A stretch of DNA of 62,510 nucleotides, filler included, from Hausera hauseri (GCA_046269625.1; 11 parts of 11 records of this genome joined end to end with filler, not necessarily neighbours in it); one strand, 5' to 3'. Counted from the first letter of the whole stretch, positions 1 to 42,995 are shown. Notes: a model not told the origin generated them from the sequence alone. A program made the numbers and translations.

Positions 1-85
1 ATGGCAAACCATAACGTAGAACAAGTGATTAAGTCAAAAGCTGATTTCACTCTCCCAATTAGAAAAGTTTTCAGGCAAAGAAGAT

Positions 86-895
86 GTGCAGGATTTCGTC
101 ATGGAGTATGAGGTATACTCAAGAAGTTTTGGTTGGAAGGACCAACAACGTATGGAGAGATTACCTCTCCACTTAAAAGGGACAGCCTTGACGATATATT
201 TCCAGATGCCAGAAGAAGATAAGAAAGATTGGAAAACCGTTAAAGAAAAGTTGCCGCAAAAGTTTTTAGTTGATCCCTCTGGAAAGGGAAGGATAGAAGA
301 GTTCATACAAAAAAGGCAACGAAAAGACGAAACGGTTCAAGATTATGTATGTGCACTGGAAAAGTTAGCAGCTAGGGCATACCCTGACGTAACGATAAGA
401 AATAACGCACTGTTGGCCCAATTCCAATACGGACTTGAAGAAAAGTTAAGAACGATAATCCTGCAAGCCGACCCACCGACGTTCCAAGAAGCCATAAGAA
501 AGGCACGTAAAGCCGAACGAGATGCGGAACTATATAGGTGGAGTAGGTCTAAAAATTATGAAAAGCAAAAGAACAATAGTACACAAAAATATCAACGCTA
601 CGATAGAAACCGTAGCCCATCTCAAACATCAGCCATGGAAGCTGAATCCGATATAAATAAGCAAGTAAGGTTTAAATTAAGGAATCATGGCGAAAAATCC
701 ACTTATGTAAAGTATCCTAAGAAGGATAAGAAAGATGGTAGATCCCTACCACCGATAGATTCGGAAGGAAGGCTAAAGTGTTTCAATTGCAACAGATATG
801 GACATATTGCAAAAGCATGTAGAGCGAGAAGAAATGCTAAAGACGACAAAAAGGAACCAAGAAAAGAATATATTTCAGCCATATCAGACGAGTAA
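86..895 (+). CDS. gag: Gag (capsid-like core plus zinc knuckle); the stop at 893 is probably a mutation
   Basis: LPLHLKGTA, QRKDETVQDYVCALEKLA, QFQYGL and CFNCNRYGHIAKAC motifs; the copy near 28160 has TCA where this one has TAA. Confidence 0.9.
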   Translation: MQDFVMEYEVYSRSFGWKDQQRMERLPLHLKGTALTIYFQMPEEDKKDWKTVKEKLPQKFLVDPSGKGRIEEFIQKRQRKDETVQDYVCALEKLAARAYPDVTIRNNALLAQFQYGLEEKLRTIILQADPPTFQEAIRKARKAERDAELYRWSRSKNYEKQKNNSTQKYQRYDRNRSPSQTSAMEAESDINKQVRFKLRNHGEKSTYVKYPKKDKKDGRSLPPIDSEGRLKCFNCNRYGHIAKACRARRNAKDDKKEPRKEYISAISDE

Positions 896-2573
896 TCGGA
901 TGAAGAATACGAAACAGAATGAAGCATTAGCGAATACGAAAGCAAAAAGGAAAGTAAAAAGGACAAAAAGAAGGAAAAGAAAGGAAGTATTAGTTTTATA
1001 GAGGATATTGTATCTCAACATATAAAGACTCAATTAGCAATAGAGTTAAACGATTATAAAACACAACAGAAGAGACTGAAGGAAAACGGTATTTACACAT
1101 TAGAGGATAAAACTCAAGTGGGAAAATCTCGCCAAAGTAGAAAGAAAGGAAACAAGAAAATAATTGAAATTAGCTCAAGAGAAACGTCAGTCGAGAAAAG
1201 CGAGACTGTAAAAAGAAAAGAAAAAAGTGGGACGTAAGAAAGATGCACCTGACGAAACCCCTTCGGAGGAAGGTAAGATAGAAACCCCACCAGTAAAATT
1301 ATTTGATGAAACAGTAATAGAGCAGGTAATAGCACAAGATGTCGAAGTGGATTTAGATGCGGAAGACGATATCATTCGAGCAATAGTGTATATTGATCCT
1401 GAAAATATAGTTGACATAAATCAGGCAACTACGTCAATATTAAAGATAATTGACAACAAAATATCAACGATAAAATTATATGAAATCTTATTCCAACTTC
1501 TTCTATTAGCCCATGATACTAGTCCTGTCAGAGATATTGCACGAACAGTACTGGCCAAAGAGGCAGATGACGAGAAGGGAAGAAACGAATTCGTTAGAAT
1601 AACACTAAAGGAAGAAAACCAGGACATGAGAGTAATAAGAATGAAGGAAACTGATGATATATTAGCCTTACGAGAAAAAATAGAAGTTATAACCCTTTTA
1701 TAAAGAAAAAGTATATGGACTGAATTTCTATGGGCGAACATTGTATGGTTATGATAACTTTTTTAAGAATTGGATGTAGAAGTGAGAACTATAAGGGCTG
1801 AGGAAACGATAAATGAAATAGTTCGAGAATTAGAACCACAAGAAAAGATGGCTCAACCCTTCCGTGACACTCAGAATGTTATAACTCAGACGGAAGCTAA
1901 ACGACGAGGTAGACCAAAAGGAACGAAAATAAGTGATATAAGGAATAAAAGGGATAGAAACGAAGAGATAGTTCGACGATTATTACTGGGGGGTACGGAT
2001 GTGGCAGCAGAATCAGTCGATATTGACCCTTTAATTAGAACTTTATTAGCACGATTGCATACTTCGTTTGCATCATTTGATATGCAAGTAACGATCCCAG
2101 ATGAACTATTCCAGTTAATACGTAATGCTCTATTAAGAATCAGTAGACAATTTTATGAAAATATTGCCGAAGAAAGGATTAACGAACTTTATGAACAAGA
2201 TATTTTAGAAAAGATGTTTGCAACCGGAATTACGAAAGATAAAGTATTAACAGTAATAGCATACCTGTTATACAAAATAATTACTATTAATTATCAGACA
2301 CAGAATTTAGACGAAATTGACCGTAATATTAAAGTAATTATTAAGGTTTTGCGAGACGCACTAGAAAATTGGGTGCAGTGCAGGGGCAGATGGGTGCAAA
2401 GTCTAACGACCACTATTATGGGACCAGAAATTCATGAAAGAATATCCGATGCGAGCCAACTAAGAATGCAAGCTACCAGGCAAGGTCTAACCAACATGTC
2501 CTTCACTGAAATTCTACAATTATTGTTAGTAGCCTCAATATGCATGCCTAAGGCTATGGACATAGTCACTTAA
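896..2573 (+). pseudogene. Spacer protein between Gag and glycoprotein (basic region, helical region, possible Ubl, AT-hook-like KRRGRPK, ending in a signal peptide)
   Basis: ORFs 1227-1703 and 1770-2573 align with 28555-29951; hydrophobic LLQLLLVASICMPKAM immediately precedes (Y)DC. Confidence 0.7.
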
Positions 2574-4340
2574 GATTGTTCAAAATTAAAGGAAGGACAA
2601 AAATATTCATTGGTAGATCTAGAGAAATGTCCAGAAGCGGACCCGGAGCACCTAATAACAACGACAGGCCACACCTATTACGTGTATCAGGAATCAGGGT
2701 TTATTAAGGTTAAGATAAGAGAGTGCGATCTAAAAAAGTCATTCTTTTTGTTCAACTGTACATATTATTCAGGTAATTCTGCAATAATGGAGCCTACAAC
2801 TCCGTTCGAACCAATAATTATTTTACGAGCTGAATGTCAGGATGCATATAAAATCGGAGTAATCACAGTCCAGAACGCTCAGATTCCAGCTGTACGAAAT
2901 AAAATAAAATACACTCGAATTTTCAGAGCTGGAAAGATTGACAAAACTAGTGAAGGGTCCTGCGTTGGAGTGAATTACGATGTAGGAGGTATTATTGCGC
3001 CAAGAACAGTTGCCATTGAGGATTATCAAGTCCAATTAAAAGAGTATGAAGCATTGTTTGATTCCAAAACTAAAATAATGACTACTATGAATGAATGCGA
3101 ATATGAAAACGGTGAATGTGACACTGGAGAATCTAAGATGACGTGGGAAGTATCAACGGGTAAATGCCATCTTACATTATTAAAAGAAGGGAGGTTCAAC
3201 AAAACGGTCGGAAAGACGACAGAAAAAGAAACAGCTACTTTTAAGGAAGGACAAAAAGATGTTAGAATGACGGAAGTCGCTACTGTGGTATACTCAGAAA
3301 ATCCTCAGGATATGATGCGATTTAAAATTACCGGAACGATAAGAAAATGTAATGAAGATATATCCAAAACCAATTATAAAGGCCAAAATTTGTCTTTAAA
3401 AGAAATCCCTGGTGCCAAAATGAAGCTAGATAAAAGGGATATAAAGTTAACGCAACACTTTGATAATAAAATTGATTTCTTAATCAACTATGTAAGAATA
3501 GAAATCAGAAGTCTATACCGAGAAATAATAATGAACGAATGCAAATTGAATTATGAAATAATGAGGAATAAACTGGCTGTAGTGATAACTAATCCAGATA
3601 TGGTGGCACCGGTAATGCCCTTTGGCCAAGGAGTAATCGGAAGGATCATGGGTGAGGCACTGATCACAATAGAATGTAAGAAAGTAGAAGTTAAGTTGAG
3701 ACCCACTACGGAATGCACGACGGAACTACCGGTGGACTACAATAACGAACCAAGATACGTAATGCCAGTAACAAGAATTCTTCTAGACGCTGAAGTTAAG
3801 CCAAACTTGTTGATAAACTGTACATATAATATGTCGCCGATGTTTAAGATAAATGATCAGTGGATAAGAATGCCAAAACGGGAACGTGTAACACCGCCTG
3901 AAACACTCAGCCTAATAAACTTACAGAAAAATCATAAATTTGAACCACTTACCGGTATACCTCAAGGAGGAATTTATACCGAACAAAATTTAGAGGATTA
4001 TAGACGAATGCTATTATTCCCACAACAGCGACAGCGAGTAATAACGGAATTAACCAGAAAAGTAATGTGGGACGGTGAAGGATCACCACAATGGGAAAAT
4101 CTGATGGGTCGAGATTATCTAAAAAAGGTTACTCGAAATGTAATGGAAAAGATGTGGGGAAAGTTTTTATATTTTGGCCAAGCAGCCTCAGGATTTTTAG
4201 CCATATATTTTATGATTAGCACATTGCGAACGATATTTACCGCTCTCAGCAAAGCTTATGGGATTCATGCAGCAGTTGGATGCTCATGGAAAATTATAAT
4301 AGCCGTTATACCAGCAGTAGCTAGTTGCTTCCTAGCAAGA
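2562..4340 (+). CDS. env: Chuvirus-like (gB-type/class III) envelope glycoprotein ectodomain plus transmembrane region
   Basis: N-terminal IV(A/T)YDC..YSLVDLEKC; GEALITIECKKVEVKLRPTTECTTELPV..PVTRIL; GGIY..L..YRRMLLFP; WGKFLYFGQAASGFLAIYFMI. This matches the motif series I recall for chuviral glycoproteins. A TAY>TAA nonsense change is at 2571. Confidence 0.8.
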
Positions 4341-4805
4341 CATGACGCAAAATGGAAAAGAAGGATACTCAAAGACAAAAATAAAGATTTAGAGAATAAC
4401 TCACCGTACAGTACGCTTAATAGAAAGGAGGATGATGAGAATAGCAACTCCCCAAACACAAGTAAACATATCAATAAATATATGAAAAGATTGAGGCGAG
4501 TTTCATGGACGTCATGGAATCGAAAATACAAGAAGACATTAATGTCACAATTACCGAAAATAAATTTCGCTGACGAATATAATGGTCAAGCTATTATGGT
4601 TCCAACAGCACCTCAATATACAGGATTGTCACCCCAATGTACGGGATCAATAACACCGGAGCAAGGATACCTTTCAGAACAGAAAGAGATGTATCCAATA
4701 TACCAAGTACTAAGAATGAAACGAAATTGTGACGAAAATCAGATGCCCTATAATCGCGATACCACTTGCAAGGTAAGTGAGGATTACCAAAAACAATCAT
4801 CAGCA

Positions 4806-5726
4806 AGGCCTGAAATAATGACTGACATAAATGGGTACCCAATGATTGCTCTAATAGACACAGGATCAACAACCACAATAATGGGAAGAAACCAATTGCC
4901 CCTGGAACTAGTAAAGAAACTGAGAAAACCCTCCGAGACGTTAATAAACGTCGAAGCATTTGGCACGGAAGAGAAGATAAGGACAGTCCTCGACGCCAAA
5001 GTTACAATATGTATTCAGGTAATTAAACACACCGTAAGGGTGGCAGAACGTTTAACAAATGAAATATTAATTGGATGTGATATCTTGAATCAGTTGGAAG
5101 ACGCATATATCGACTTAAGCACAGGTCAAATAAGGAAATTTAATACGAAACAGCATGATGGAGCGGTGTCATTGATAAAAGATATTGTAATTCCACCACG
5201 TTCCGAAATAATAGTATCTGAAAAAATAGAAGGCAAATCTCTCGGTAAAAACGTATATTTCGAACCATCCATAGTAACCATGGAAAAGTATGAAATACTG
5301 ATAGCACCTCATATAGACAGAATAAGAGACGGAAAAATCCATTTACGGATTTGTAACACGGGACGAAAAGAAATGAAGCTAAAAAGGAATACTAGAATGG
5401 GATGCGTAATGGTGGTGGAGGATACGCTAGAAAGTTCTAGGGAAGGCACTAATTCTGTCATCTCAGAAGTAGATACAATTGAAAAAATGATGGCAGCAAA
5501 ATTAAGTAACGCAATAAGCAAAGTGAAAACAAAAGACAAGACTAGTGTTATTAATTGGGATGAGAAATTACAGGATTCTAAAGTGTTGACAGACGAGGAA
5601 AAGAATAAGTTACAAGAACTCCTAATAAAAAATAATGATCGCTTTAAACAAAATGACTATGACTTAGGAGTTATGAACGTTATACAACATTCTATTAAAC
5701 TAAAAAACGGGCAAGATAAACCAATA
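4806..5726 (+). CDS. pol: Aspartic protease, dUTPase-like linker and RT N-terminus, in frame with the glycoprotein (ORF 2610-5726)
   Basis: ALIDTGSTTT (DTG at 4857-4865), ILIGCDIL, IVIPPRSEIIV..LRICN, DLGVMNVIQHSI. Confidence 0.9.
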
Positions 5727-5826: not shown

Positions 5827-6389
5827 ATGCTCTAATTATCTTTCCAGGCTGCATCTCTAGTTCCATACTATCCCATTTTAGTCTTCCGGTTTCTCGAGCC
5901 TGTTTGCAGTGTTTTCTTTCTAAATTATCGAAGAATGTCCTTGCATTAATCCACAATGAGAAATACTACGAGATCGTCTCAGCATACATTCCATGCCGTC
6001 CAAGGATATCAACTCTTGTTGTTGGTATAGAAAATAACGCTTCTCCCTTTTTCTAATTTGTGGGATCTGGCATCCTCACATGCCTCTAAATCCATTAGTG
6101 ACTATTTTTGCCCAAGCTTAAATCTATCGCAGTCGTATACAGTAACGGCACCCATCTGTCTTATTAGCATCATTATGGTGAGTAAACTGATTAACCAATT
6201 AGATTCATTTTTCCGGTTGCTACTATCCGTTTTCGTCAAGTTCCGTGAAATGTCTTCGAGTCTATTGTTGCTACTGGTTCTTTTGTCTTCTTCCTTATCA
6301 AATAATCTTGACCACTTTACTTCTCAAGGAAGTTTACTTTTTTTTTTTTTTTTACTTTTTTTTAGTTTACTTTTGGATAACTTGAAACG

Positions 6390-7247
6390 TCAACTTCTTA
6401 TTGTCCTAGCTGCGTTACATATCGCTTTTTCTTTATCATCTATTGTGTCTCCTCGAAGGCTTGAATAATTTACGATTCGTATTAAATTTCTCATTAGTTC
6501 ATTTAATTCTTCGTTTTTAGTACGGAAAGTGGGAAGTGACAATTGCCTCAGTTCTCTAATCAATTCTTCGTTATAATCTGCTTCTTCTCGGGCCTTTCTA
6601 GGCCTACCGATTGGGCGTTTTGATTTTCGGGCAATAGTCGTTATTCCACTTGATGGCACTAGGTTCTTATCGTATTGTTCCTTGTCCTCATTTGTTTGTA
6701 AATATTCGAAATACATTGCAGCATCCCATACTCCCATGATTTGTCCTACGCACAGCTCTGTCTTAGCCTTACGCGTGGCTTCTTCCTTTGTCTCTGCATT
6801 AGCTATTATTACTACTATTCGATTTTTCTCACCAGGAATAATTCCAACGTCTGTTAGTAGTTCTAAATCATCGAGTATTCTACCTCTAAAGTGAAATCCG
6901 TAATTTAGCTCATTTGTTTCGCCATTCTTTAATAACCACTCCCTTATATCCTTTAGCTGAGAATGTGTAGCTAGCTTACACTCATTTTCTTCCATCCACT
7001 CGGATAATGTCATTACTTTTATTGATACCTCAGGTTTATCTCTCAAGATATTCGCATACTTTTTCATCAAAAGTTTCGGAACCGCGCTGTAGATTGTGTT
7101 CTTACTAGATAATTTCGTCAAGGACGAAATAAGTTGTCTTAGCTTATTTTCAGAAATATTTACGTTAATTAATTCAATTAGTTCCTTTTCGGTTATTGCG
7201 GAATCCAAGAGCATCTCCACATTGAATTTCCTGTTTTGCGGATACAT
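6390..7247 (-). CDS. Spacer protein with ubiquitin-like domain and AT-hook-like motif
   Basis: YGFHFRGRILDDLELLTDVGI resembles the Ubl motif LIFxGKxLxDxxxLxDYxI; RPIGRPRK at ~6595-6620. Confidence 0.55.
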   Translation of the reverse strand: MYPQNRKFNVEMLLDSAITEKELIELINVNISENKLRQLISSLTKLSSKNTIYSAVPKLLMKKYANILRDKPEVSIKVMTLSEWMEENECKLATHSQLKDIREWLLKNGETNELNYGFHFRGRILDDLELLTDVGIIPGEKNRIVVIIANAETKEEATRKAKTELCVGQIMGVWDAAMYFEYLQTNEDKEQYDKNLVPSSGITTIARKSKRPIGRPRKAREEADYNEELIRELRQLSLPTFRTKNEELNELMRNLIRIVNYSSLRGDTIDDKEKAICNAARTIRS

Positions 7248-7772
7248 TTCCGTTTCATTTAAATGTACCGGAGTTACCGGAATTTCGGCCGTTATTGTTT
7301 CTAAATAAGCATCCCATTCGGGTTCATTTCCAATATTTGGAAGTCCATAGTCTACTAGAGCTATGTTCGTTTTTGTACATTCTCTCGAATTTCTTTTAAT
7401 TTTGGTTGTATTTCTTTCATCTACGTAGTCCGGAAACCTATCCCGTTTCCACAGGCATACTGAATCATTTTTAGTAGTTCACCTAGTTTATAAGAATTGA
7501 TAAATCCTTTCTCGTGATAATCGATTAGTTCAATAATTACGTTTCTTTGCCATCTTTGTACAAATTCTCGCTTATTTTTGATTTCTGATTCCGTAAAAGC
7601 GTATTTATTCCGGTAGCTTTCAAACTCTTTTACTATTTTATCTAGTCTCATTGTTCTTCATTTCGTTCTGATGCACGTTTCTTCAACTTGTTGTAATTTT
7701 GGCATCAATTGCCTCATCTTTTCATCATTAATCTCCGCCATTTCCACCAATAAATAGGCTAGCCCATACATC

Positions 7773-9139
7773 TCATTTATAATTTTTTGAGTCGGGATCC
7801 ATTGCGTCCATCAATTTCTTAACGAACTTAGATTCTTCGACACTAACACGTTGATTGTTTCTTATTTTCGTCAACTCGTTATGACAATTCTGATCTGTAC
7901 CGGCCATCCATTCTCGTGCTTCATGCAAAAATTTTACTGCTTCTATTAGGGCTGCTCCATGTTCTGGACAAATACCTAGGGTTTCGATATCCTGGATTAA
8001 AGTCTCGTCAATAGGTTTCTCTGTTAAATGTTGGATTCCTTCTCGTCGGATGCTTCTTAATCTTGAATAAAAATTGCAAGTCATATTTCGCTTTTCTGTA
8101 AAATTCGTTTCTTCAATCATTTTATATATTTCTTCCAATATTGCCATTTTTTGCTTCTCCTTCATAAAATTTAATCGTCGTAATGATTCGAACCGTGTCC
8201 GGATGTCTATTTCTGCTTGTATGGTGTTTAAGTTACGTGCACCTTCTTCTAGTTGCTTTTTTACAGATGGTTCGCTTTCCGGAAATTCTTTCTTGCGGTA
8301 TTCTATTAATTTGCTTAATCTCGTTATTAATTCGGACCATTCTACAATTGGTTGGCAATTATCGGCTTTGCTAATATTGTCTTGTCTAACATTTTATATG
8401 CATCTTTCAATTCATTGTCGGGGTCTTTTATGAAGTTCATAATTTGGCTAGCATAATTGAGCTCATTCTTACATTCATCGAATTCTATGATGCAAGTCTT
8501 TATTATATATTTGGTTTCTTTACTATTCATGAACATGATTCGATTTCTTAAACTACTGATCTGCGATCTTTTTTCATTCGCCATTTTAATGCGGCTTTCT
8601 AAGTCCGCACATCGTCTGGTTTCGGCAAAGGCAATTTTTATCATTTCCATGAACAGAGGAATATCTATCGGGTCTACACCCAATATTTCCAAGTCGATAT
8701 CTCTTCCATTGCTAACCGGTTTTTCTCTAAGTCGATCAATCATTGCATAACGGATTTCATCCATCTTGTGTTCTAAGTTACGGGCCACTTTCTTTAACTT
8801 AGGATTAGTTTCTAAGGTAGATAGTAGTGTTTGCGCTTCAGCAACTTTTACATCGATACTATCTTTGTCTTTACTCCATCCTTCCGAAAATTCGACTCCA
8901 CTTTTAATCCATGACTCTAATTTATAGTTCCATTTTGTCAACGTATCATGCGACACCTCTTCCGGTTGTCTCAACTCGATTGCTTCTTCGAGCTTTCTTT
9001 CGCTAAGTAATTTTAAACTCTTGTATAGTTTCTTCACAAATTGTTGTTCTTTACCCGATATATCTGTTTGTTTACTGATCTGTTTAAGTCTTTCTAATTT
9101 ATGTTGGAGTACTTCCGGATCATGATATCTGGTTCTCAT
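7773..9139 (-). CDS. Helical spacer-protein fragments (ORFs 8342-9139 and 7773-8165), function unknown
   Basis: Long K/E/L-rich ORFs on the element's sense strand with mutual similarity (LREKPV..LEILGVDP / LTEKPI..IETLGICP). Confidence 0.5.
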
Positions 9140-10390
9140 TGATTTTAGTTCCTCGGCATTCTTCCATGAACGTCGAACTTTCCATTTTCTCGCACCGAAA
9201 TCATCATTGTCTTCCGTTTCTTACTCACTAGCGAGAAGCGGACAAATTTCATTTATTTCGTCGTTATTATTTATTGTCTCTGGTGTTCCCAACCCTTTTT
9301 CATTTCTTTTAGGGGTTCTAAAAGTATCTAAGGGCACGTCGCCTTCTAGAATAGTAATATAAAAGTCTTCTTTTCCTTCCACGTCCTTCTTTATGAGAAA
9401 CCGTGAGAGTCTTGGATTTTCTCCTAGGCTATGGGCTTTTACCTCTATTCGTCGTTATCTTGAGAACTAAAGGCCCAATAAATTCACTTTAGATCTCATC
9501 TGTTGTCTCATTTGGGTGGTACTTTTCAGATTCTGAATCTAAATCAACATTCTGAAATGTCTTTGGTTTCTCTAACTGGGCTATTCCTTGGGGAATAGAC
9601 TTTTTACGCGCCATATTGGCATTGTTTGATACCAGTGCATATTCTTCTTCGGTTTGTGGTTTTCTTAATCCGTGATAAACTTCCATTAGTCGTAATTTCT
9701 CTTCATATTCTTTCCTAGCCTTCATTACTTGAGGATTTGTAGATTCGCCTAAATTTCTCACATATTTACGTAGATCTTGCATTTCAATGATCAGGCTTAT
9801 ATCACCGCGTTTACCGTAGATGGCTTCTAAGTTATTTCTAATCATACTTGTTTTGTTCGGTTCGGTAAATGCGATACTTCTAGGATTCGGACATGACCTT
9901 GCGATGTGTCCTTCTTTGCCACATGTAAAACAAATTAAATTCCCATTCCGGCGAATCCTTTGTCGGCTATTTTTATTTACAGGTGATTTTGCTCTGTTTG
10001 TAATCTTATTCTGGCTTTGTAATATATGTTTGTTGTCACCGTCATATCTGTTATGATTATTCCGATTATCAGTGTATTTATTATTGTGTCGGTAAGCACC
10101 TTGGTTCCTGTCTGAATTGTAACTCGATCTATTATACGAGTTGTATGTATTTTGATTATTACTAAAATTTCTGTCATTTCTTTGATTCCTATTGTGAACA
10201 TTTTGATTTCTGTTATCAAAACTTCGGTTTCGGTTATTATCATTAAATCGTATGTTGTCCTGATTATCGTTTCTATTCCGGCTATTGCGGNNNNNNNNNN
10301 NNNNNNNNNNNNNNNNNNNNNNNNNNNNNNNNNNTTAATTAATTAANNNNNNNNNNNNNNNNNNNNNNNNNNNNNNNNNNNNNNNNNNNN

Positions 10391-10420
10391 GATGAAGACC
10401 TAGTGGTCGCAACGTAGCTT
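10391..10420 (+). ncRNA. Truncated, mutated hammerhead-ribozyme-like core (Penelope-type)
   Basis: (CT)GATGA-A-GACC-tagt-GGTC-GCAA-CGT; the core is cut by the contig edge and GAAA reads GCAA. Confidence 0.35.
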
Positions 10421-10588
10421 GTCTTTTTCATTTTCCTTACGTGAGACTTACCCTACCCTACTTTTGTATTCCTACCTCACCAGTGTGTTTTTGCCTACTT
10501 AGCTCTCTACAAACAACAGAGTATCACTGCAATGGATTCCTGCACACCAGCATACAAGGAAGTGATTGACACCTCCACATGACTAACA

Positions 10589-13810: not shown

Positions 13811-14010
13811 GTTTCACCTAGGCTGCCAACTATTTCAGCACGCTCAACATCATCGGATGGTTGAGACTGCAGTGAAGGAGCACCTACGGGACCACACTCA
13901 CAGCTCAGGCTGCGGTCTACTGTGAGGCGGCGGGTACCAAGACCCACAACTAGGTTGAGGAAGCTGAGCCCAACCCCTCTGTCCTCTCTTTTATCCGAGA
14001 TTAGTATTCT

Positions 14011-14026
14011 TCCTTTACCTTTACAG
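14011..14026 (+). promoter_or_regulatory. Probable env splice acceptor
   Basis: Pyrimidine tract TCCTTTACCTTTACAG ending 25 nt before the env ATG. Confidence 0.55.
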
Positions 14027-14051
14027 CCAAAGAAACATTAAAAGATTCATC

Positions 14052-15824: not shown

Positions 15825-15825
15825 A

Positions 15826-16542: not shown

Positions 16543-16554
16543 GAAAGGGGGGAA
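16543..16554 (+). promoter_or_regulatory. Polypurine tract of the retrovirus
   Basis: GAAAGGGGGGAA one base before the TG that opens the LTR. Confidence 0.9.
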
Positions 16555-16555
16555 T

Positions 16556-17284: not shown

Positions 17285-17288
17285 ATTT

Positions 17289-18629: not shown

Positions 18630-19480
18630 TCTTAATTAACCGAAGGTTTCCTCATTGCAGATTTCTGAGGTTAATTTTGCCAAGACACCTTTTTCTGCTG
18701 TTGTTCCGGTTGATTTTGATATTTTTGAAAGGGGTTCTGCTGAAAGTTTTTCTTCTGTTGACAATTTTTCGACTTCTCATCATTTTTAGGATGTTTCTTG
18801 GTATTTTCAAGTCTCTCATAATTGACTTCAATTTTCCTAGCCTTATTGACGGCTTCTTTATATGTATCCGGATTTGCAACAATAATGTAATTCTGAATTT
18901 CCTTATTAACTCCATAACAGAATTAATCTAGTAGGGCATCTTCCCTTATATCAACATCTGCATAAGTACTCTGAGCCAATTTCTGAAGGACACATGCAAA
19001 CTCTTGCACCGTTTCACCTTTCCTTTGACGTGGCCTGTTGAACTCTCCTATTCGACCTTTTCTTGATGGGTCTACGAAGAGTCTTTCTTCCAGGGCGTCC
19101 TTAAGGATAGTCCAATCAGCTTTATCTTCTTCGTCTTTTATTTGTGTATAGACATTAAGTGCCATACCTATGGGATGTAAAGGGAGCCGTTTCGTCCTGA
19201 ACTCATCTGTCCAGTTAAAACTTCCAGAGTACATTTCTTATTACATGATGAAGTCTGCATAATCCTGGTCAGGTTTGGCCTCATATTTCTCCACTGGTAA
19301 TACCATAGTTCCTGACAAGTTACTGCCTAAGCTTGCACCTAATCCGCAATTCGACGTTTCTGGGTTCTCGTTCAAATTTATCTCGGAATTTGCGTCAAAT
19401 TTGGAACTACTCCTTGCCGAATCTGTAACAGAAATTGTATTAGTAGCGTGTATTTTACGTTTATTGCGTAAAGAATACGA
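18630..19480 (-). pseudogene. gag: Gag of the glycoprotein-bearing Gypsy group (decayed, truncated)
   Basis: RLPLHPIGMALNVY, LFVDPSRKGRIGEF and QRKGETVQEF align with the Gag at 86-895. Confidence 0.85.
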
Positions 19481-19492
19481 CGCCAGTGTGCC

Positions 19493-19510
19493 TCCTCACT
19501 CGAGGCACCA
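19493..19510 (-). promoter_or_regulatory. Primer-binding site, elongator tRNA-Met-like
   Basis: TGGTGCCTCGAGTGAGG one base after the LTR-terminal TATCA; close to the eMet complement TGGTGCCCCGTGTGAGG. Confidence 0.7.
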
Positions 19511-19511
19511 G

Positions 19512-20222
19512 TGATAAGTTTATGAGTTAGAAAAAGAGTTTGGGTTCTTCTCAACCCTAAACTTATACTATAAAATAATACTCAAAATAGTCTAGGGTAG
19601 TTTGCTCCCAAGACTTTACTTTCTATTCAATCTTATAAGCAGCCTGTGGGGTCTGCTTAGAGAATTAATTTGATGCACGTGTGTAACGATCGCTAGGAGG
19701 TACACTAGCATCGTATCCCCTTTTTATAAGATTTTGGACAACCGTCTTATGGACGGAATACCGAAAAGAGGGCCCTAAGTTTAGCAAATCTTTATTTAAC
19801 CTTATAATATATATAAAAGAAAATAATTTACTGTAAAAAATCTGTATTAAATATTACATAAAACAAAAATTACACAATAAAAATAATACTCACAGCAATT
19901 ATAATACATAGAAGTTTCGGCAATAATACGAAAGTGACACAAGACAAAAATATAAGTCTGTCTGTAATGATCTGTACACATGCTTATATACTATTCCATG
20001 TGATAAATGTGATAAAAAAATTCGGTCAATAATTAAATGACAATAAAAATTCAGGTCAATAATTACATGGTAATATCCATGTGATAAAAAATTCAAATCA
20101 ATAATTACATAGCAATATCCATGTGATAAAAATTCAGGTCACCGATATAATTTATATTTTTAGTTATTATTATTGTGTTATCTGGTTTTGCGAACCTCGA
20201 ACATAACTGTTAAGTATCAACA
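19512..20222 (-). repeat. LTR (~710 bp) of the Gypsy element, with ~41 bp tandem repeats at 19995-20140
   Basis: Starts TGTTGATA after the PPT and ends TATCA before the PBS; repeat unit TATCCATGTGATAAAAAATTCAGGTCAATAATTACAT. Confidence 0.8.
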
Positions 20223-21589
20223 CCTCCCTCCTCAGATGGCGTTGTCCTCAACACCAGAGGGTAGGTTTCTAAAATACCGTTTGCATATCGGTAATTGGCG
20301 GAATCTAACCGCAACCACTGATTGTCCTTCCGGATTTTCTTTTTCAAGGTGACTGTTTCACGGGTCGATCTTTTCTTTTTACTTTTTGTAAGGTCAATTA
20401 GAATGGAATCGTCTGAGTTTATAGTAGGAACCATTTCACTGGTAGTTGGTTGGTCCGAAATTGAAGTCTCTGAGGGTTTATCAATGTCCATTGGTTCAGA
20501 AATTGGATTAGAAATAATTTTTGATAAAACTTGTCGAGGAATTTTTATTAATTCTTGTGTATCAGATTGTACTTGTTCATGTGTCTCATCATTATCTGTT
20601 TTATATTCACAAATTGATTTATAGATTTTTAGCATTATAAGAGCCTTTTCTCGGGTACGAAGGGGATACACTATATCATTATATTTCATCAAAATTTGTT
20701 TTTGAGTGAGTTTCTTATCCGGATTTATTTCACAATGATACAGCAAGTCGCGGATACCGTGAATGGCATTAATGTCCATCAGATCCAGATGCAAATTAGT
20801 ATTGTATAGATCCATACCAACGATTAACCTTCCGTTTAATTTTTGTCTAATTAGAGATCTGGATTGATAAGAATCCATCTGTCCTGGGATATCTGCTTCC
20901 TTTAAGCCGGTAATCTGGCTATTGTAATTGTCGATTCTATCTCTTGGGGTGATGACTTCGTCGAGGATAATGTTTCCCTGTAGGTCCATAATGGTTACTT
21001 CTATCAACGTTATTTTCTTGTTTCGTAATGGCGTTAATAGATAGGCGGAGTTAACTGCTAAGACATATATTCTATTTTCTTTTACTTTTGGTAATCGACA
21101 GAAGGACATTCCAGATACCAATTGTTCTCGGTTTGGTAGGTTGGCAGGGTAAAGGGGTTTCTCGCATTCTATTTGGGGTAAATTTTCTCTCCGAGTCACT
21201 TCGATATAGACAATTGGGGCTTGTCTACCATATGCTCGTAATATAATCGTAACGTTCTTATAGAATCTTTTGTCCAATCTAACGGTTGAAAAAGGTGTGA
21301 CTTCAAGGATATCAGTAAAATCTTTTAGATGAGCTCTGCTTTTTACCTGCAACATTTCTTTCGCCACGGATATATATACAGAAGTTGTTCGCGTGGAGAT
21401 ATCAATAAGATCAGAAAGTTTTGTTGAGGCGTTTGGCAGTTTGATAATCAATCCAGCCCTTTGGTCGACCAGATGGCCTTTAAGATTATTTGGGATAAGA
21501 CTGGATTTTCCAAAATACATATAATCCTTCTCGACTGTCTGATTAATGTTGTTGAGGATATTGAAATAGAACGACTTTGTTCTTTCCAC
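20210..21589 (-). CDS. Retroelement 3' ORF with a DEDDh exonuclease-like (REX4/ISG20-type) domain; catalytic acids appear to be substituted
   Basis: VTIMDLQGNIILDEVITPRDRIDNYNSQITGL..LNGRLIVGMDL..IRDL matches the REX4/ISG20 scaffold. ExoI reads LAVNSA and ExoIII reads TREKA. Confidence 0.75.
   Translation of the reverse strand: MERTKSFYFNILNNINQTVEKDYMYFGKSSLIPNNLKGHLVDQRAGLIIKLPNASTKLSDLIDISTRTTSVYISVAKEMLQVKSRAHLKDFTDILEVTPFSTVRLDKRFYKNVTIILRAYGRQAPIVYIEVTRRENLPQIECEKPLYPANLPNREQLVSGMSFCRLPKVKENRIYVLAVNSAYLLTPLRNKKITLIEVTIMDLQGNIILDEVITPRDRIDNYNSQITGLKEADIPGQMDSYQSRSLIRQKLNGRLIVGMDLYNTNLHLDLMDINAIHGIRDLLYHCEINPDKKLTQKQILMKYNDIVYPLRTREKALIMLKIYKSICEYKTDNDETHEQVQSDTQELIKIPRQVLSKIISNPISEPMDIDKPSETSISDQPTTSEMVPTINSDDSILIDLTKSKKKRSTRETVTLKKKIRKDNQWLRLDSANYRYANGILETYPLVLRTTPSEEGGVDT
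20223..20233 (-). promoter_or_regulatory. Polypurine tract
   Basis: GAGGAGGGAGG immediately before TG; overlaps the last codons of ORF 20210-21589. Confidence 0.75.
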
Positions 21590-21974
21590 TGATTCGGATC
21601 CTTCTTGAACTAAAAAAATAGATTAACACCAACCAAGAAACGTTTGAAAGTGATTTATAACTGTAAAATCGTTTATTTGATTTGCAATTTTGGTAGGTCG
21701 TAAAAATCTTAACGGCCTTGTCTTGTACTACTGTACAATAATTTACAATTACATTCATTAATCGACTTTCTTGTCGTATAATCTTTTTATTTGTCCAATT
21801 CTTATCGGTAAAGAAGGTTGGCGGACAATTTTGCCGTTTATATTCGGTCAATTTTATATCTTGACAGTTGTCGTTATCAAACAGTTTATGTTCGGCAATT
21901 TGCCGATTTCCATTATTCAAAGAAGGCGCGCTTATACTATCTGATAAATCATCTTGGGAGTTTTCCCTTAACAA
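21543..21974 (-). pseudogene. Probable frameshifted upstream continuation of the 3' ORF
   Basis: Same strand, overlapping and of similar composition; no motif recognised. Confidence 0.35.
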
Positions 21975-27094: not shown

Positions 27095-27112
27095 TGGCAC
27101 CGTGACCCGGGA
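27095..27112 (+). promoter_or_regulatory. Probable primer-binding site (tRNA-His-like) after an LTR ending at ~27092
   Basis: ..GAACA-AC-TGGCACCGTGACCCGGGA upstream of gag; imperfect match to TGGTGCCGTGACTCGGA. Confidence 0.5.
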
Positions 27113-27255
27113 TAAAGAATTTGCTTTAGAGAACCAGAAGAAAAGAAGAACTCAAAATTACGACAAGAAAAGGTATCCAGTATCAGTTAACTCATAATAC
27201 AGCAGAACAACCTTTTGGATTAGAGTTTTTAAATAATCTAAGCGAAGAAGAAGAA

Positions 27256-30200
27256 ATGACAAATCAGAGTGCTAATATAATGGAGCATGTGATTCAGTCG
27301 AAAGCTGAATTCACCTTGCCCATGAAGAAGTTCTTAGGTAAGGAGGACGTGCAAGATTTTATTATGTAGTACGAAGTGTACTCAAAGAGCTTTGGTTGGA
27401 TTGACCAAAAGCGAACAAAAAGATTGCCTCTTCAATTAAGAGGGACTGCTTTGACAATTTATTTCCAAATTCCCGATGAAGACAAGAAGAATAGGAAAGG
27501 AATCAAAGAAAAACTGCCTCAGAAATTCTTTATGGATCCCTCTGGAAAGGGTAGAATAGAAGAATTTATAAGAAGAAGGCAACGTAAAGATGAAACAGTC
27601 CAGGATTTCGTCTGTGCACTGGAGAAGTTAGCCGCCAGAGCATATCCTGACGTTACTAGAAGAAATAATGCATTACTAGCCCAATTCCAATACGGGTTAG
27701 AAGAGAAGTTACAAACAATAATCTTGCAAGCAGATCCACTTACATTTCAAGACTCCATAAGAAAGGCGCGAAAAGCCGAACAAGATGACGAACTATATAA
27801 ATGGAATAATCCTAGAGGTTATAATAATTATGATAAACAAAGGAATAGTAATAAACAAAAAAATTATGAACGTTATAACAGAAGCAGAAGTCCATCCCAA
27901 ACATCGGCCACAGAAGCAGAATCTGATGCGGAAAAGAAGGTCCGGTTTAAATTAAAGAACGACGGTGAAAAAGCGAGTATTAAGAAGAAGTCTTTCCTAA
28001 AGATGAAAGAAACTTACCTAATATAGACGCTGAAGGAAGGTTAAAATGTTTTAATTGTAACAAATATGGTCACATAGCAAAAGCATGCAGATCACAAGAA
28101 AGGGAATCCTCAAAGCCTTATAAGCAAAAGAAAAAGGAATATACATCAGCCACATCGCACGAGTCATCTGATTAAGACTATGAAACAGAAGAAAGTGAAC
28201 ATGAAAAGAAGAATAAGAAGAAGGAAAGTGTGAATTATATTAATGATATACTATCTCAACGTATAAGAACTTAACTAGACATGGAGGTAAGAGATTATAA
28301 AACACAGCAGAAGAGATTAAAAGGAAAATAGTATTTACGTAGTGGAAGAAAAAACAAAAGGCAGAAAGCAGCGGCAAGGAGGAAAGAAAAGTAATAAAAA
28401 AATAATTGACAATATCGAATCAAGAGAAACTTCTGTGGAGAAAAGTGATGTAGAACAGAAGAAAAGAGGACGAAAGAATAGTGAGTTTACATCGTAAGAA
28501 AATGAAAAGAATGTCCCACCTACAAAAATTTGTGATAAAACCGTTATTGAACAAGTGATACACGATATAGAAGTAGACTTAGATGCTGAAGATGATCTTA
28601 TCCAAGCAGTAATTGCTATAAACCCTGAAAATATAATAAACGTAAATCAAGCGACGAGCACAATATTAAAGTTAATAGAAAATAAAGTATCTACCGATAA
28701 GATAAACGAAATACTATTTCAGCTATTATTAGTCGCCCACGATACGAGTCCAATAAAAGACATAGAACGAACAATATCGGCTAAAGCAGCTGAAGAGTAA
28801 AAAGGAAAAAACGAAACAGTAAGAATAACATTAAAGAAAGGAAACCAAGATATAAGGGTTATAAGAATGAATGAAACGGACGATGTATTTACATTACGAG
28901 AAAAGATTGGAGAACTAGAACCGTTTTATAAGGAAAAGACATATGGATTAAGCTTCTATGGCAGAACACTATACAGTTACGACAATTTGTTACGAGTGGG
29001 ATGTAGCAGTGAAAACTATAACCCAATTATGATAAGAGAGAGATACACTCCGATGCAAGAGCAGAAGCAACGATAGAGAATATAATAAGGGAACTGGAAT
29101 ATCAAGAGGTTGATGGATAACCATTAGGTGATACACAGGATGTTACGGTACAAACAGAAGCTCGGATGAGAGGGAGATCAAAAGGAAAAAAAATAAGCGA
29201 CTTTCGAAACAGAAAGGATCGAAACGAAGAAATAGTACGGTGATTGCTATTAGCAGGAACGGATACAACGCCAGAATCTGTAGATATAGATCCATTATTA
29301 AGAACGTTACTAGCCAAATTACATACGCCATTTGCATCGTTTGATATGCAAGTGGTAATTCCTGACTAATTGTTTCAGACGTTATATAACGGTATGCTAA
29401 AAATTAGCAGGCAGTTTTACGAAAATATTGGTGAAAAAAAAATTAATGAAATACATGAGCAAGATATATTAGAAAAGATGTTCTCAACAGGAATCACGCG
29501 AGAAAAAGTACAAACAGCTATAGCTTATCTATTATATAAAGTGATTGTGATCAATTACCAAACCCAAAATTTGGAAGAAATTGAGCGAAATATTAAAGCA
29601 GCGGTTACGGTTTTAAAGGACACGTTAGAAAATTGGGTCCAGTGTACAGGCGGGTGGTTATCAAGTCTTACCAAAAATGTAAGAACAAAAGGATACGGAG
29701 GACAAACAGAGATACCAATCTCAAACTTACACACACCAAGGCAATGCATAACAGGAATTACGATGATGGGGATCTTTCAGTTAATTTTAATAACATCGTT
29801 GCTGATACCCAAGACAATGGGAATAGTAGCATACGATTGTTCGAAACCTAAGGAAGGACAGAAATATTCCTTAGTTGATCTAGAAAAATGCCCCAAAGCT
29901 GACCCAGAACAATTAACGACGACCAGCGGTCACAGATATTGGATTTATTAGGAGTTTGAATTTATAAAAGTCAAGGTCAGGGAATGTTATGTAAAGAAAT
30001 CTTTCTTCCTGTTTAATTGTGCGTATTATTCCGGAAACTGCAATAATTGAACCAACAACACCATTNNNNNNNNNNCATAAAAGCCCAAAGCAAGGAATAT
30101 TATGTGAAGAAATCTTTTTTTTCTGTTCAGTTGTGCGTATTATTCCAGAAACTCTGCAATAATTGAACCAACAACATCATTTGAGCCGATAATACTATCG

Positions 30201-30551
30201 CGCGCCGAATGTCAAGATGTCTTTAAAATCGGAGTTATAACGATACAGAATGCACAAATAACAGCCGTAAGGAATAAGATAAAATATACTCAAATTTTTA
30301 GAGCCGGAAGAACAGATAAAACGATGGAAGGCACGAAGGATTATTCGACTCACAAACCAAACTCATGACGACAATGAGCGAGTGCGAATATGAAAGCGGC
30401 AAATGTGATACCGGCGAATCAAAAATGACTTGGGAAGTAACCGCGAATAGATGTCATTTGATCCTACAAAAGGAAGGAAAATTCAATAAGACAGTAGGAA
30501 AGACAGCCGAGAAAGAAACAACAACGTACAAGGAGGGCATCAAAGAACTAA
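27256..30551 (+). pseudogene. Second copy of gag - spacer - glycoprotein N-terminus (more decayed)
   Basis: Colinear with 1-3250; CFNCNKYGHIAKAC at ~28047; ILITSLLIPKTMGIVAYDCSKPKEGQKYSLVDLEKC. Confidence 0.9.
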
Positions 30552-30651: not shown

Positions 30652-33600
30652 GGAAATGTTTCCTATATCGTATACTAACTCCTTCAAGTTTAGGAAAGCT
30701 CCGTAGGTTCTGTGTGAGATTACTGGAGATCCATTCGTGTTCCCATTTTAATCCAGAATTTGTCTCTTAGGTACTGGGATCGCTGACTAACGGTCAACAG
30801 CCGGCTTATTTTTATATTCACTCCAGTCATGGCCTCTACCACTAACTTAAATCGGCCTTCCAAGTTTGGTGGTAGATGACCCTTTTTCGCTATGACCTTG
30901 ATTTCCATTTGTCCCATTACAGTTGGGTGGGTCTCTATCTCTCTCACTCCGACTATATGAGTTACTGATAGGTTTAATTTCTTTATCATTCTTTGTACTT
31001 GATACCCCACTAAGACGTATCTGTACAGCCATTGTGCTACTTCCTCTTGCACTAATTTGGAATCCTTCCGCGGATAATTGTTCTCTTTTAATTTTAGTCA
31101 CTTCAGCATAGGTTTCTTGTACCTTCTTTCTCGGGTTAATGATCTTTGAATAGATTTTGACCCCGTTCTCTTTTCGTATGGATATTTCAATTGGGATGTA
31201 GTTCCCTTCTTCTCCTTCTCCATAATTTATTGCGGAAATCCTGATATTCCTGTCATCGGTTACTAGTCTGAATGAATGTAGATGCGCGTCTTGTTCTTCT
31301 TCAGTGGGCCTTTGCCTAAATTCTAGGGCGGCAATGAGACGGGTGTTGTTTCCTCTTCAGTTTTCCCGACCATAATTTTTACAGGTAAGATTGCGATACG
31401 GAATTCCATCTCGCAATCGTGGAAATTCCTACTGTTAAATAAAAATGTGCTAACGGCTTCACGTCCATGCATCATAAAGAATGGCGTAAATCCTGTTGCT
31501 GGATGTGGTGTGGAATTAATTGCAAATTTAGTTCCTTCTAGAAATTCGTCCCAATTCTTTTGGTCCTTTGCCACTACTGTTGATAATATGCATATGACGG
31601 TAGCATTTATCCGTTCGACCATTCTGTTACTCTTAGGATGATATGCGGTGGTTGTTAATCGTTCGAATTTAAATATTTTGGAAATCTTCTCGAAAAGTTC
31701 ACTGGTAAAATTTCTTCCTCGATCTGTGAGTATCTGGTCTGGGGGCCCATATTGGCAAATAATTCTTTTTACTACGGCTTCTGCTAAAGTTTCGGCCTTT
31801 CGTTCGATTAATGCTATCAACTCGACAAAATGAGTTCGTCAATCGATACACGTCAAGATATACTTGTTGTTTTTGTGAGTTATATGGAGAGGTCCTACAA
31901 TATCCATCGACGTGGCTTGCATGAGCCTATCAGATACATCAATTGGTTTTAATTCGGCCATGTAATTTTTCGTCTTCTTTTGTTTAGTTGCACATACTTC
32001 ACGCGCATTTATCCAATTCTTCACATCAGTATAAATATTAGGCTACAAGTATTTATTCATTATTCTGTCTAATGTTTTCTTCCAAGACATGTATCCGGCT
32101 AAGTATGAATCGTGCTCTGACATCAGTACTTCGGTTCGTAACCCTTTTGGAATAACTATCAATTTTCTTCCTTTCCTTTGGTTATATAAAATATCTTCGT
32201 TACTCCCGTCATTTAAGACGCAGTATTTATGTCCGTGTCTGTGTAAATGTTTCTTTAGCTGTCGTCCCTTTGGTATGACATTCTTGCTAGCAAATTCTAT
32301 AATCTGCTGGATGACCTTATCCTTTCTTTGTTCTGTTGAAATTTTAATGGCCTTATCCATCGTTAAAGCGCGTTGGCGGTCTATTATCTCTTTGAGTTGA
32401 CTTTTCTTCATTACAGTGATTGCGCTTGTTTTGGTCTTTAGTCTGGACAGTGCATCTGCGTCTACATGTTTATTCCCTGGCTTATATTGAAATTCAATAT
32501 TGTATTTCGATATTTCTTTGATCTATCTGTTGAGTCTGCATGTCGGGTTATTTGCTCGGCCCTTCAAGGCTGTAACGGCCTTATGATCAGCGACAATTAT
32601 AATTTTCTGCCCGTATACATAAAAGTTAGTGTCGAAGTGCTTCTTTTACGGCTAGGGTTTCCAACTCAGTGACAGAATAATTTTTCTTTGCCTTTTTCAA
32701 GGAACGTCCTCCATAAGCAGTTGAGTGTTCTAATTCTTTATCTTCTCTTTTCTGTGCTAATTTATATCCAATGCCCTCTTTACTGGCGTCTGTCTTAATT
32801 ATAAAGGGTAAGTTAAAATCTGGGTATCGTAAAACAGGTTCACTTGTTAAGATTTTCTTCATTTCATCGAAAGCTTTCTGTTCGACGTCTGTCCATTTTC
32901 ATTTGATTCCTTTTTTAAGCAGACGATATAGGGGTGTATTTATTTTTGAATTATCTGGCACATAAGTTGCGTAATAACCGCAGAATCCTAGCCAGTGCCT
33001 TAACTCTTTCTGGTTTTGCGGTTCCATGAAATCTGATACTTTGTTCAATAACGATTTATCTGGTTTTGATCCTCCTTCTCCGACCATGTGGCCAAGGTAG
33101 GATACGGCATTTTGGGCCCATTTGCATGTCTTCGGATTTAACTTCAATCCGGCTTGTTCCATTCTCATCAGCGTATGTTCAATATTCTTTAAGTGTTCCT
33201 CTTCGGTCTTTGTCGCTATCATTACATCGTCTAAGTACGCAAAGCGTGATACAGTCCCATTGACATTTTGTTCATCATCCTCGTAAATATGGCTGGCCCG
33301 GTAGTGATTCCGAACGGCATGACGTTGAACTCATAAACACCGTCGTGTGTTTTAAATGTTTTCTTATAGCGGTTTTCGTCTTCAATCTCTACTTGCCAAT
33401 ATCCGGATTGTAAATCCAGAGTAGTAAACCATTTTGCTCCTGAGAGTCTGTCTAGGGTCTCCTTGACTGACGGTAATGGGAAGGAATCTTTCATCATAAG
33501 GTTATTTAAGGCTCTGTAGTTAATACAAAATCGAGGTTTTGTGGTACCTTTCTTAACCATGAGGATCGGTGAATACCAAGATCTGTAGCTGGGCCTGATT

Positions 33601-42990: not shown

Positions 42991-42995
42991 TACTA

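Follow-up and report, generated by a model that had tools for sequence, protein, structure and literature searches.

Broken Ty3/gypsy copies, probably from a flatworm, with a predicted class III glycoprotein placed after gag and before pol

The window, the whole 62,510-nucleotide stretch of DNA that was analysed, consists of 11 contigs joined by spacers, and its first contig carries a retroelement fragment in the order gag, Bcl-2-like domain, internal signal, glycoprotein, protease and pol start. The features of this contig, followed by those of its relatives elsewhere in the window, are listed below with the evidence in brackets.

29..892, plus strand: gag, with a Ty3-type capsid at ~56-580 and one CCHC zinc knuckle at ~776-823 (Pfam)
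893..1211, plus strand: charged linker after gag (stops at 893 and ~920; frame change at ~1210-1230)
1212..1793, plus strand: helical segment followed by a probable ubiquitin/SUMO-like domain at ~1560-1790 (similarity to the relative P0001)
2028..2405, plus strand: predicted Bcl-2-like domain (Pfam, profile search, predicted model)
2487..2573, plus strand: internal signal-peptide-like hydrophobic stretch (hydropathy)
2574..4163, plus strand: predicted class III fusion glycoprotein ectodomain with five N-glycosylation sequons (PF24664, predicted model)
4164..4352, plus strand: membrane anchor region, with two hydrophobic stretches (4164-4226 and 4254-4352) and then a basic cluster (hydropathy)
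4803..5099, plus strand: retropepsin-type aspartic protease, RVP (PF00077, E 1.9e-7, residues 744-842)
5172..5405, plus strand: possible dUTPase-like domain between protease and reverse transcriptase (RT) (PF00692 at a weak E of 0.17 only; Burro-like position)
5550..5726, plus strand: lead-in to RT (tblastn with P0007, P0010 and P0152)
5914..10289, minus strand: contig 2, a distant decayed relative (domain and homology searches)
18719..21622, minus strand: contig 4, a fifth relative (LTR ends by eye)
27095..30551, plus strand: contig 5, a second subfamily with many stops (domain and homology searches)
31386..35964, minus strand: contig 6, a distant relative in Ty3/gypsy order (domain and homology searches)

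Contig 1 starts within gag or at the gag start, and gag is recognised by PF03732 (E 1.3e-8), PF19259 (E 2.6e-7) and PF00098 (zf-CCHC, E 1.1e-4). From gag to env there are about 860 codons (2.6 kb) with one knuckle. The segment at 1212..1793 resembles residues 376-525 of P0001 (27%, E 6e-9), and the ubiquitin-like assignment comes from a weak Pfam match to residues 473-522 of that protein (E 0.031), with none on pieces of the window; the segment is broken at ~1690-1795, where the frame changes three times and a short piece is deleted. Further downstream, ahead of the Bcl-2-like domain, is an RGRP motif at ~1902-1916 that is presumably AT-hook-like. Pfam found no match to MATH/TRAF, BIR, RING or ankyrin domains in the ORFs of contigs 1 and 5.

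Immediately before env lies a predicted Bcl-2-like domain, overlooked in the initial annotation, for which the individual scores are modest and sequence and fold agree. The Pfam Bcl-2 matches (E 0.0037 in contig 1, 5.5e-5 in contig 5) both fail the curated cut-off, a profile search with the region reaches Bcl-xL (E 7.6e-4), and residues 79-204 of the predicted model superpose on Bfl-1 (Z 6.5, rmsd 3.9 over 112), as well as matching MCL1, GIV66 and BHRF1. A BH2-like motif is retained and the BH1 signature is altered. A keyword search of the open literature on Bcl-2 in enveloped flatworm LTR retrotransposons returned no paper, but the domain is described for planarian Burro (PMC6431247).

The frame from 2574 to 5726 has no stop and holds both the glycoprotein (PF24664, Monjiviricetes_fusion, E 7.9e-81, residues 9-630) and the retropepsin, so that the glycoprotein, downstream of gag, is indeed open into the protease as initially proposed. 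The same frame had been said to run to the start of RT; it does reach the lead-in, the last ~170 bases matching only the pre-RT lead-in of relatives, but the contig ends ahead of the RT core. Rfam gave no matches.

The glycoprotein is predicted to be a class III fusogen, as the first reading implied, and of the herpes gB-like type; Pfam, Foldseek and the VIA model comparison agree on this. Its model, with pLDDT mostly >90, retrieves HSV gB (E 1.9e-14) and, among the best viral matches, chu-like virus G (E 7e-40) in Foldseek, and compares to gB in VIA with Z 9.5, rmsd 9.4 and 416 aligned residues. Of the 35 rows of a profile search, 33 are herpes gB, and every row is weak (best E 0.014); a single-sequence search against PDB sequences returned nothing, and the ESM Atlas gave PF24664 and rhabdovirus clusters only, with a recognition value of 1914, under the 2300 mark. 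The topology of signal and anchor is read from hydropathy and conservation only. The proposed internal signal-like stretch precedes the glycoprotein in all 16 relatives examined (by eye), and in contig 1 the stop codon at 2571-2573 marks the boundary of signal and ectodomain. The second hydrophobic stretch of the anchor region, once thought to complicate the polyprotein topology, is not peculiar to polyproteins: both stretches are present in 8 of 8 glycoproteins examined from outside the env-in-the-middle clade, and the second is also found in stand-alone viral glycoproteins.

Env is flanked by both its gag and its pol side in contig 1 only. The claim that three other contigs repeat the order was therefore overstated, none displaying both sides of env, but contigs 2, 5 and 6 each show half of it, and all the halves are compatible with one order. 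Contig 2 (5827-10290, minus strand) carries a zinc knuckle (~9932-9885) and the first ~70 residues of the glycoprotein (~6200-5914), along with ~3.7 kb of unassigned coding remains. Contig 5 has gag from 27256 and continues past the Bcl-2-like domain into the glycoprotein, of which the first ~230 residues (its first third) are present, with a primer-binding-site-like motif at 27095-27106, 10 of whose 12 bases equal the His(GUG) tRNA end, and a scaffold gap with an overlapping duplicate at 30066-30075. Contig 6 supplies the other half, with the glycoprotein end and anchor (35964-35200, last ~240 residues), a protease at ~34542-34234, and then RT, RNase H and integrase, interrupted by stops and frame changes. 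Contig 4, missed at first, has a DEDD-exonuclease-like ORF (21622-20210), a purine tract, a probable ~710-base LTR (~20222-19512, ends placed by eye, this stretch being present once), a primer-binding-site-like motif at 19510 and a gag (19357-18719) that is 72% identical to that of P0001; no glycoprotein lies on the contig. No contig covers a whole element, and an LTR pair is therefore not visible on any.

The copies in contigs 1, 2, 5 and 6 are all broken, with none intact in the window, and the long protein would not be makeable from them. The family is of high copy number, as 9047 records of run X1 were placed on it, 375 of them at 99% or above, and the window's own copies differ from one another by up to ~70%. 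Contig 5, previously regarded as a sister copy of contig 1, belongs instead to a separate subfamily, with 69% DNA identity (2860 columns) and saturated synonymous sites. Between these two, dN/dS is <=0.07 in 4 of 4 blocks, indicating purifying selection before decay, and in the upstream blocks this selection extends right up to the signal.

The breaks listed initially for contig 1 (stops at 893, ~920 and 2571 and a frame change at ~1220) are present, while the matching places in contig 5, read by eye, are all open. At the junction ~1790/29060, cited as a caveat, both copies are out of frame as stated, but this is not one shared lesion, because the deletion in contig 1 removes the stretch where contig 5 shifts. 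A programmed frameshift at ~1790 was rejected, less firmly for the subfamily of contig 5, given these different lesions and given that P0001 and one related X1 contig (joint read by eye) join the two sides in frame.

Intact relatives (P-numbered) are metagenome proteins, so that the host of the elements is deduced, and they bear out the suggestion of a single Gag-Env-Pol ORF. Glycoprotein and protease occur within one ORF in 13 of the 21 proteins scanned, and gag or a zinc knuckle shares an ORF with the glycoprotein in P0001, P0008, P0015, P0019 and P0011. The 2146-aa P0019 holds capsid, knuckle, glycoprotein, protease (PR), RT, RNase H and integrase (IN) in one ORF. P0001, the nearest relative (SH 99 in the glycoprotein tree), is one ORF from gag into the glycoprotein, open at every contig 1 break up to that point. 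P0152 has 4844 aa, with ankyrins, and several long relatives begin at a called ATG just upstream of the signal, themselves lacking gag. Searches for related loci gave 128 pattern matches in viral contigs and 524 in metagenome contigs, none confirmed.

Taken together, the contigs are very probably broken copies of several Ty3/gypsy subfamilies. These likely belong to the planarian Burro/GYPSM1 group and likely come from a flatworm, and in working condition they likely encoded a single polyprotein in which a class III glycoprotein separated Gag from Pol. Such a polyprotein would be threaded through the ER. Gag and the accessory domains would be made in the cytosol, after which the internal signal would begin translocation and be cut by host signal peptidase. 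The ectodomain would enter the ER lumen and be glycosylated there, the anchor region would halt transfer with one net crossing, and the basic tail would return to the cytosol, where protease, RT, RNase H and integrase would be made and released by the element's own protease. What is left of the signal after cleavage would remain attached to the Bcl-2-like domain ahead of it and serve as its tail anchor. The unspliced RNA would yield Gag, Env and Pol in equal numbers, without an env splice.

Equal output of Gag and Pol is unusual, and errantiviruses and retroviruses as a rule make Env from a spliced mRNA. Both points fit a different arrangement, in which env is in frame but is translated mainly from a separate mRNA, either spliced or started internally, the hydrophobic stretch being an ordinary N-terminal signal and the long ORF serving only partly for Gag-Pol. 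This arrangement is doubtful, since intact relatives have no break in the frame before or after env, purifying selection acts in the blocks immediately upstream of the signal, and Pol, being downstream of env, must be read through env anyway.

The assignment to Ty3/gypsy follows from the PR-RT-RNase H-IN order with a gypsy-type RT in contig 6, and from the Ty3-type capsid with a CCHC knuckle; as capsid and RT are gypsy-type, the elements do not belong to BEL/Pao. In trees made with FastTree (SH support), env-in-the-middle glycoproteins form their own clade (19 of 129 rows, SH 98) beside the stand-alone chuviral/Anakin-type proteins, and the RTs of env-in-the-middle relatives form a corresponding one (12 of 128 rows, SH 97), so that the suggested comparison of the two trees yields matching clades. 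The contig 6 RT falls inside the latter on a long branch, with odd composition and a small best blastp margin (322 vs 318 bits), and IQ-TREE on 14 rows did not resolve its placement. P0103, whose glycoprotein is preceded by a DUF5641 domain, groups with the stand-alone clade.

Shared membership of one Pfam family, and the chu-like virus glycoproteins that are the best viral structural matches, would also suit the idea that the gypsy elements of this genome recently acquired their glycoprotein from a chuvirus, an origin proposed for mosquito Anakin. Such an event is very improbable: identity to stand-alone glycoproteins is 21-30%, the env-in-the-middle proteins are one deep separate clade with a corresponding RT clade, and copies in the window differ by up to ~70%. 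The glycoprotein tree is midpoint-rooted and so shows no direction of transfer, in either sense. The initial term 'chuvirus-like' suits these glycoproteins as to family and fold, but, with a clade of their own beside the stand-alone ones, they do not demonstrate that a chuvirus was the direct source.

The layout itself, initially put forward as novel, is already published (PMC6431247, PMC13524379), a circumstance the initial annotation had itself named as counting against its claim. Burro elements, first entered as Burro/GYPSM1 in Repbase Reports (Jurka 2007, via PMC6431247), are described as giant gypsy-like LTR retrotransposons of planarians, with thousands of copies that are decaying in some species, and an in-frame gag-BCL2-env-PR-dUTPase-RT was reported in 2019, with a one-ORF order of Ubi/SUMO-BCL2-env-PR-dUTPase-RT (PMC6431247). 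The likeness extends to one ORF with gag, CCHC knuckle, BCL2-like domain, an env related to mononegaviral fusion glycoproteins, PR, RT, RNase H and IN, whereas the Ubi/SUMO-like and dUTPase-like domains of Burro have only the weak counterparts given above; for contig 1 it is a match to the published description. The homology searches brought up no named Burro protein. Contig 1 differs in being compact, without the MATH/TRAF, BIR, RING and ankyrin cargo of giant Burro, and the 3' DEDD-like ORF on the contig 4 relative is absent from the Burro list as given in PMC6431247. From its domain content, 'Burro-like, compact' would be the apt label for contig 1 rather than strict Burro.

From Platyhelminthes, Bryozoa and Nematoda, Chary and Hayashi describe GAG-ENV-POL Ty3/gypsy 'ancient errantiviruses' whose env is of the gB type (PMC13524379), in which a gB-like class III ectodomain lies between a signal/TM and a TM, as in contig 1. 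Schmidtea errantivirus 1-6 (type C1a; PMC13524379) have gene order, Ty3/gypsy pol and gB-type fold in common with contig 1, and all six ENV rows share ectodomain motifs with its glycoprotein (by eye), whereas the bryozoan ENV and the 15 nematode C1 rows that were compared lack these motifs, likewise by eye. Unlike the broken copies here, the published elements are intact, each in multiple copies at 98% identity; 'polyprotein' is absent from the main text of that paper and accessory domains are not discussed in the sections covered. The nematode endogenous retroviruses (NERV), cited there, place env before pol in a metavirus and differ in env lineage. Anakin (Dezordi 2020, PMC7642597) has the same glycoprotein family and gB-like fold, but is BEL/Pao rather than gypsy. 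For NERV, Sacco et al. 2022 reportedly found a continuous gag-env-pro-pol ORF.

In decayed repeats of a methylated vertebrate genome, CpG hypermutation is expected. The observed/expected CpG ratio is 0.97-1.19 in contigs 1, 2, 4, 5 and 6, which have no CpG loss, and 0.46 and 0.47 in the CpG-poor contigs 3 and 9; transitions number 41 of 168 at CpG sites versus 189 of 819 elsewhere. Contig 3 carries gamma/epsilon-type pol and env (MLV-like, a vertebrate-type retrovirus) and, because of the CpG contrast, looks like DNA of a second organism. The presence of this retrovirus in the same window might instead mean that the gypsy copies belong to the vertebrate carrying it, and they would then be the first gypsy elements of the gB type known from a vertebrate; Chary and Hayashi (PMC13524379) report no intact elements of this kind in vertebrates, so that decayed ones could have been overlooked. 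A vertebrate host is nonetheless highly implausible and was rejected on the CpG evidence, the decayed gypsy copies being neither CpG-poor nor hypermutated at CpG. The host of the gypsy copies is probably a flatworm.

A bolder reading, which is unlikely, is that the env signal has two roles, its cleavage leaving the upstream Bcl-2-like domain tail-anchored in the ER in the manner of cellular Bcl-2 proteins, such that a death regulator would be set beside the fusogen at each translation, and that the host is a fish-associated parasitic flatworm whose genome was swept by an enveloped retroelement family. For that flatworm group, Chary and Hayashi (PMC13524379) list 50 of 50 screened genomes without an annotated element and with at most one ENV-POL env match, and no report of Burro in parasitic flatworms was found in the open literature.

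A fusogen inside a Gag-Pol polyprotein is an unusual design that has been in print since 2019, and these contigs add subfamilies of compact size, with models that check the class III and Bcl-2 folds at the level of structure. As dead copies they are poor experimental material, for which the intact natural relatives are better suited. The finding would gain weight if the Bcl-2-like domain acted as a death regulator anchored by the signal, or if a parasitic flatworm were the host; a fish-parasite host, if true, would be new.

The glycoprotein of the decayed Ty3/gypsy copy on contig 1 follows gag and precedes retropepsin, and Pfam places the domains as follows.

29-892, + strand: gag (contig 1)
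2574-5726, + strand: open frame with glycoprotein domain PF24664 (E 7.9e-81), then retropepsin (contig 1)

The initial annotation, which had described this order, was largely right: its breaks in contig 1 are present in the sequence, and contig 5 (27095-30551, + strand) is open at matching sites. The RT core is absent from contig 1 because the sequence stops short of it. The claim that the same order recurs in contigs 2 (5827-10290, - strand), 5 and 6 (30652-35964, - strand) holds by halves, with the gag side to the glycoprotein start in contigs 2 and 5, the glycoprotein end to integrase in contig 6, and both sides in none. Contigs 1 and 5 share 69% DNA identity, with synonymous sites saturated and dN/dS at or below 0.07 in all four blocks, and thus represent two subfamilies that separated while still functional and fell into decay afterwards; glycoprotein identity is ~30-39% for contigs 2 and 6. 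The family is abundant in sequencing run X1 (9047 records, 375 at 99% or more), a run that may be the source sample and is not independent support. On contig 2, ~3.7 kb of unassigned coding remains (6200-9900, - strand) extend from a zinc knuckle to the glycoprotein. They include a GRP motif, stretches resembling coiled coils, and a segment at ~7000-6750 that looks ubiquitin-like but received no confirmation from Pfam; the remains had no match among the proteins compared.

A junction at ~1790 is out of frame in both contigs 1 and 5, as first noted, but the lesions differ. In contig 1 the reading frame changes three times, and a short deletion takes out the stretch where contig 5 shifts. A programmed frameshift here is unlikely, given two different lesions and a junction that is in frame in P0001, the metagenomic protein nearest to contig 1, and in one X1 contig; the case is less certain for the contig 5 subfamily.

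Intact relatives bear out the reading of a single ORF. A representative protein search returned 1083 relatives at E 0.001, and from the best 150, which were listed, 21 that were longer or flanked were scanned with Pfam. Glycoprotein and protease lie within one ORF in 13 of the 21, several with duplicated proteases. For instance, P0019 is a single ORF from capsid through integrase, and P0001 reads unbroken from gag through a Bcl-2-like domain to the glycoprotein. All 16 upstream regions printed have a signal-like stretch ahead of the ectodomain. Among other features of the relatives, P0005-P0008, P0012, P0015 and P0152 have two to seven retropepsin-like domains downstream of the glycoprotein, and P0152 (a 4844-residue ORF) also has ankyrin repeats, a C2H2 finger and more hydrophobic stretches. 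P0010, a complete env-PR-RT-IN ORF that NCBI lists under a bacterial metagenome-assembled genome as a hypothetical protein, is probably animal contamination of that bin.

In a FastTree phylogeny of 129 glycoproteins (matches covering <430 residues excluded, P0001 inserted by hand), the window glycoprotein falls in a 19-row clade (SH 98) that includes 16 of the 19 long-flanked rows. The remaining three are P0133, with env after integrase, P0103, with a BEL/Pao-type domain before the glycoprotein, and P0037. The contig 6 RT, on a long branch, groups with all seven RTs of env-in-the-middle relatives, in a clade that takes in 12 of 128 rows (SH 97); IQ-TREE on 14 rows gave no resolution.

The proposal that the glycoprotein is a class III fusogen is supported by a structure model of 1794-4400 (stop entered as X, 120 sequences in the alignment), in which ectodomain pLDDT is mostly >90. 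All 32 rows listed by Foldseek against the PDB are herpesvirus gB (best E 1.9e-14), chu-like virus glycoproteins head its viral matches (E 7e-40), and the top four VIA-align matches are gB chains (Z 9.5, rmsd 9.4, 416 aligned), in a list that also has thogotovirus and rhabdovirus glycoproteins. A second hydrophobic stretch after the ectodomain had been seen as complicating the topology. It is common to all eight glycoproteins printed from outside the clade, seven of which terminate soon after, and it is thus part of the family's anchor. In gB, one helix spans the membrane and another lies on it. A similar anchor, with the basic cluster that follows the second stretch, would make one net crossing and leave Pol in the cytosol. 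The polyprotein mechanism first proposed is plausible, its membrane topology being predicted from such features.

The Bcl-2-like domain occupies model residues 79-204, at low confidence (block pLDDT ~41-74). Its match to Bfl-1 (Z 6.5, rmsd 3.9, 112 aligned) is followed by MCL1, GIV66, BHRF1, Bak and DPV022, with Z values no higher than the chance range for helical domains; the sequence evidence is concordant (Pfam Bcl-2, E 0.0037 and 5.5e-5; BOK, E 0.035; Bcl-xL, E 7.6e-4 with a profile from four sequences). The BH2-like motif is retained and the BH1 signature altered, so that ordinary BH3 binding is not assured. The domain is optional (5 of 16 upstream regions printed), and 57-87 residues separate the BH2-like motif from the ectodomain start in seven sequences. 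Part of the env signal may serve, after cleavage, as a candidate tail anchor for this domain, an idea for which the open literature searched held no report.

The window comprises 11 contigs of 4-8 kb separated by N spacers, and a Pfam scan of 39 open frames placed gypsy-type relatives of the element on contigs 1, 2, 4, 5 and 6, further gypsy pols on contigs 7, 9 and 10, and Polinton-like remains on contigs 8, 10 and 11. The last (40312-45431, 55500-62510) retain Polinton/adintovirus-like protein-primed DNA polymerase B and endonuclease VII, with a TBP-like domain at 44107-44901 (Pfam, E 6.6e-8). Contig 4 has an intact 470-codon ORF (20210-21622, - strand) that weakly matches DEDD exonucleases of the ISG20/REX type (E 0.002), with an apparently altered first catalytic motif; it runs up to a purine tract and probable LTR, beyond which lies gag (72% identity to P0001). 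Rotifer LTR elements are known to have additional DEDDy ORFs (PMC5408684, available part). Also on contig 4, short remains at 22800-24500 resemble, by eye, the GIY-YIG endonuclease of Penelope elements and a transposase of the Tc1/mariner group. Contig 3 (10391-18331) is a nearly intact, CpG-poor, MLV-like endogenous retrovirus of gamma/epsilon type (RT match to XMRV, E 1e-137), with a 1075-codon pol, a 618-codon env with TLV_coat and a gag-like start after env; it probably reflects a vertebrate in the same sample. Contig 9 (45532-51469), also CpG-poor, is a gypsy element with pol and a long acidic tail; at 50609-51076 a frame without a Pfam match starts with a signal-like stretch, a furin-like site and a hydrophobic peptide, F-type-env-like by eye.

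CpG observed/expected is 0.97-1.19 in the decayed copies, 0.46 in contig 3 and 0.47 in contig 9. Between contigs 1 and 5, transitions are not elevated at CpG relative to elsewhere (41/168 versus 189/819; 43/162 versus 176/797). The CpG kept in decayed copies and low in contigs 3 and 9 indicates that the assembly is most likely a mixture of an unmethylated invertebrate and a vertebrate. The host is likely a flatworm. In the PMC13524379 supplement, the six Schmidtea ENV rows have motifs in common with the window glycoprotein by eye, motifs not seen among the rows shown for nematodes (15) and bryozoans (10). The genome table of the same paper gives 5-253 ENV-POL env hits for five free-living flatworms, and 0, blank or 1 for 50 cestode, monogenean and trematode rows, none annotated.

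Novelty of env between gag and pol is not supported, the layout being already published. In the available text of Chary and Hayashi (PMC13524379), GAG-ENV-POL gypsy elements with gB-type ENV are known from flatworms, bryozoans and nematodes, and 114 arthropod elements have a chuvirus-like glycoprotein adjoining gypsy pol. Anakin is the subject of Dezordi 2020, and the available portions of Kojima 2025, PMC11089739 and PMC13238120 hold nothing specific to these elements. The elements are compact, decayed, newly found copies within a described layout. What is still new is the idea that the Bcl-2-like domain may take its tail anchor from the env signal, together with the possibility that the host is a parasite.
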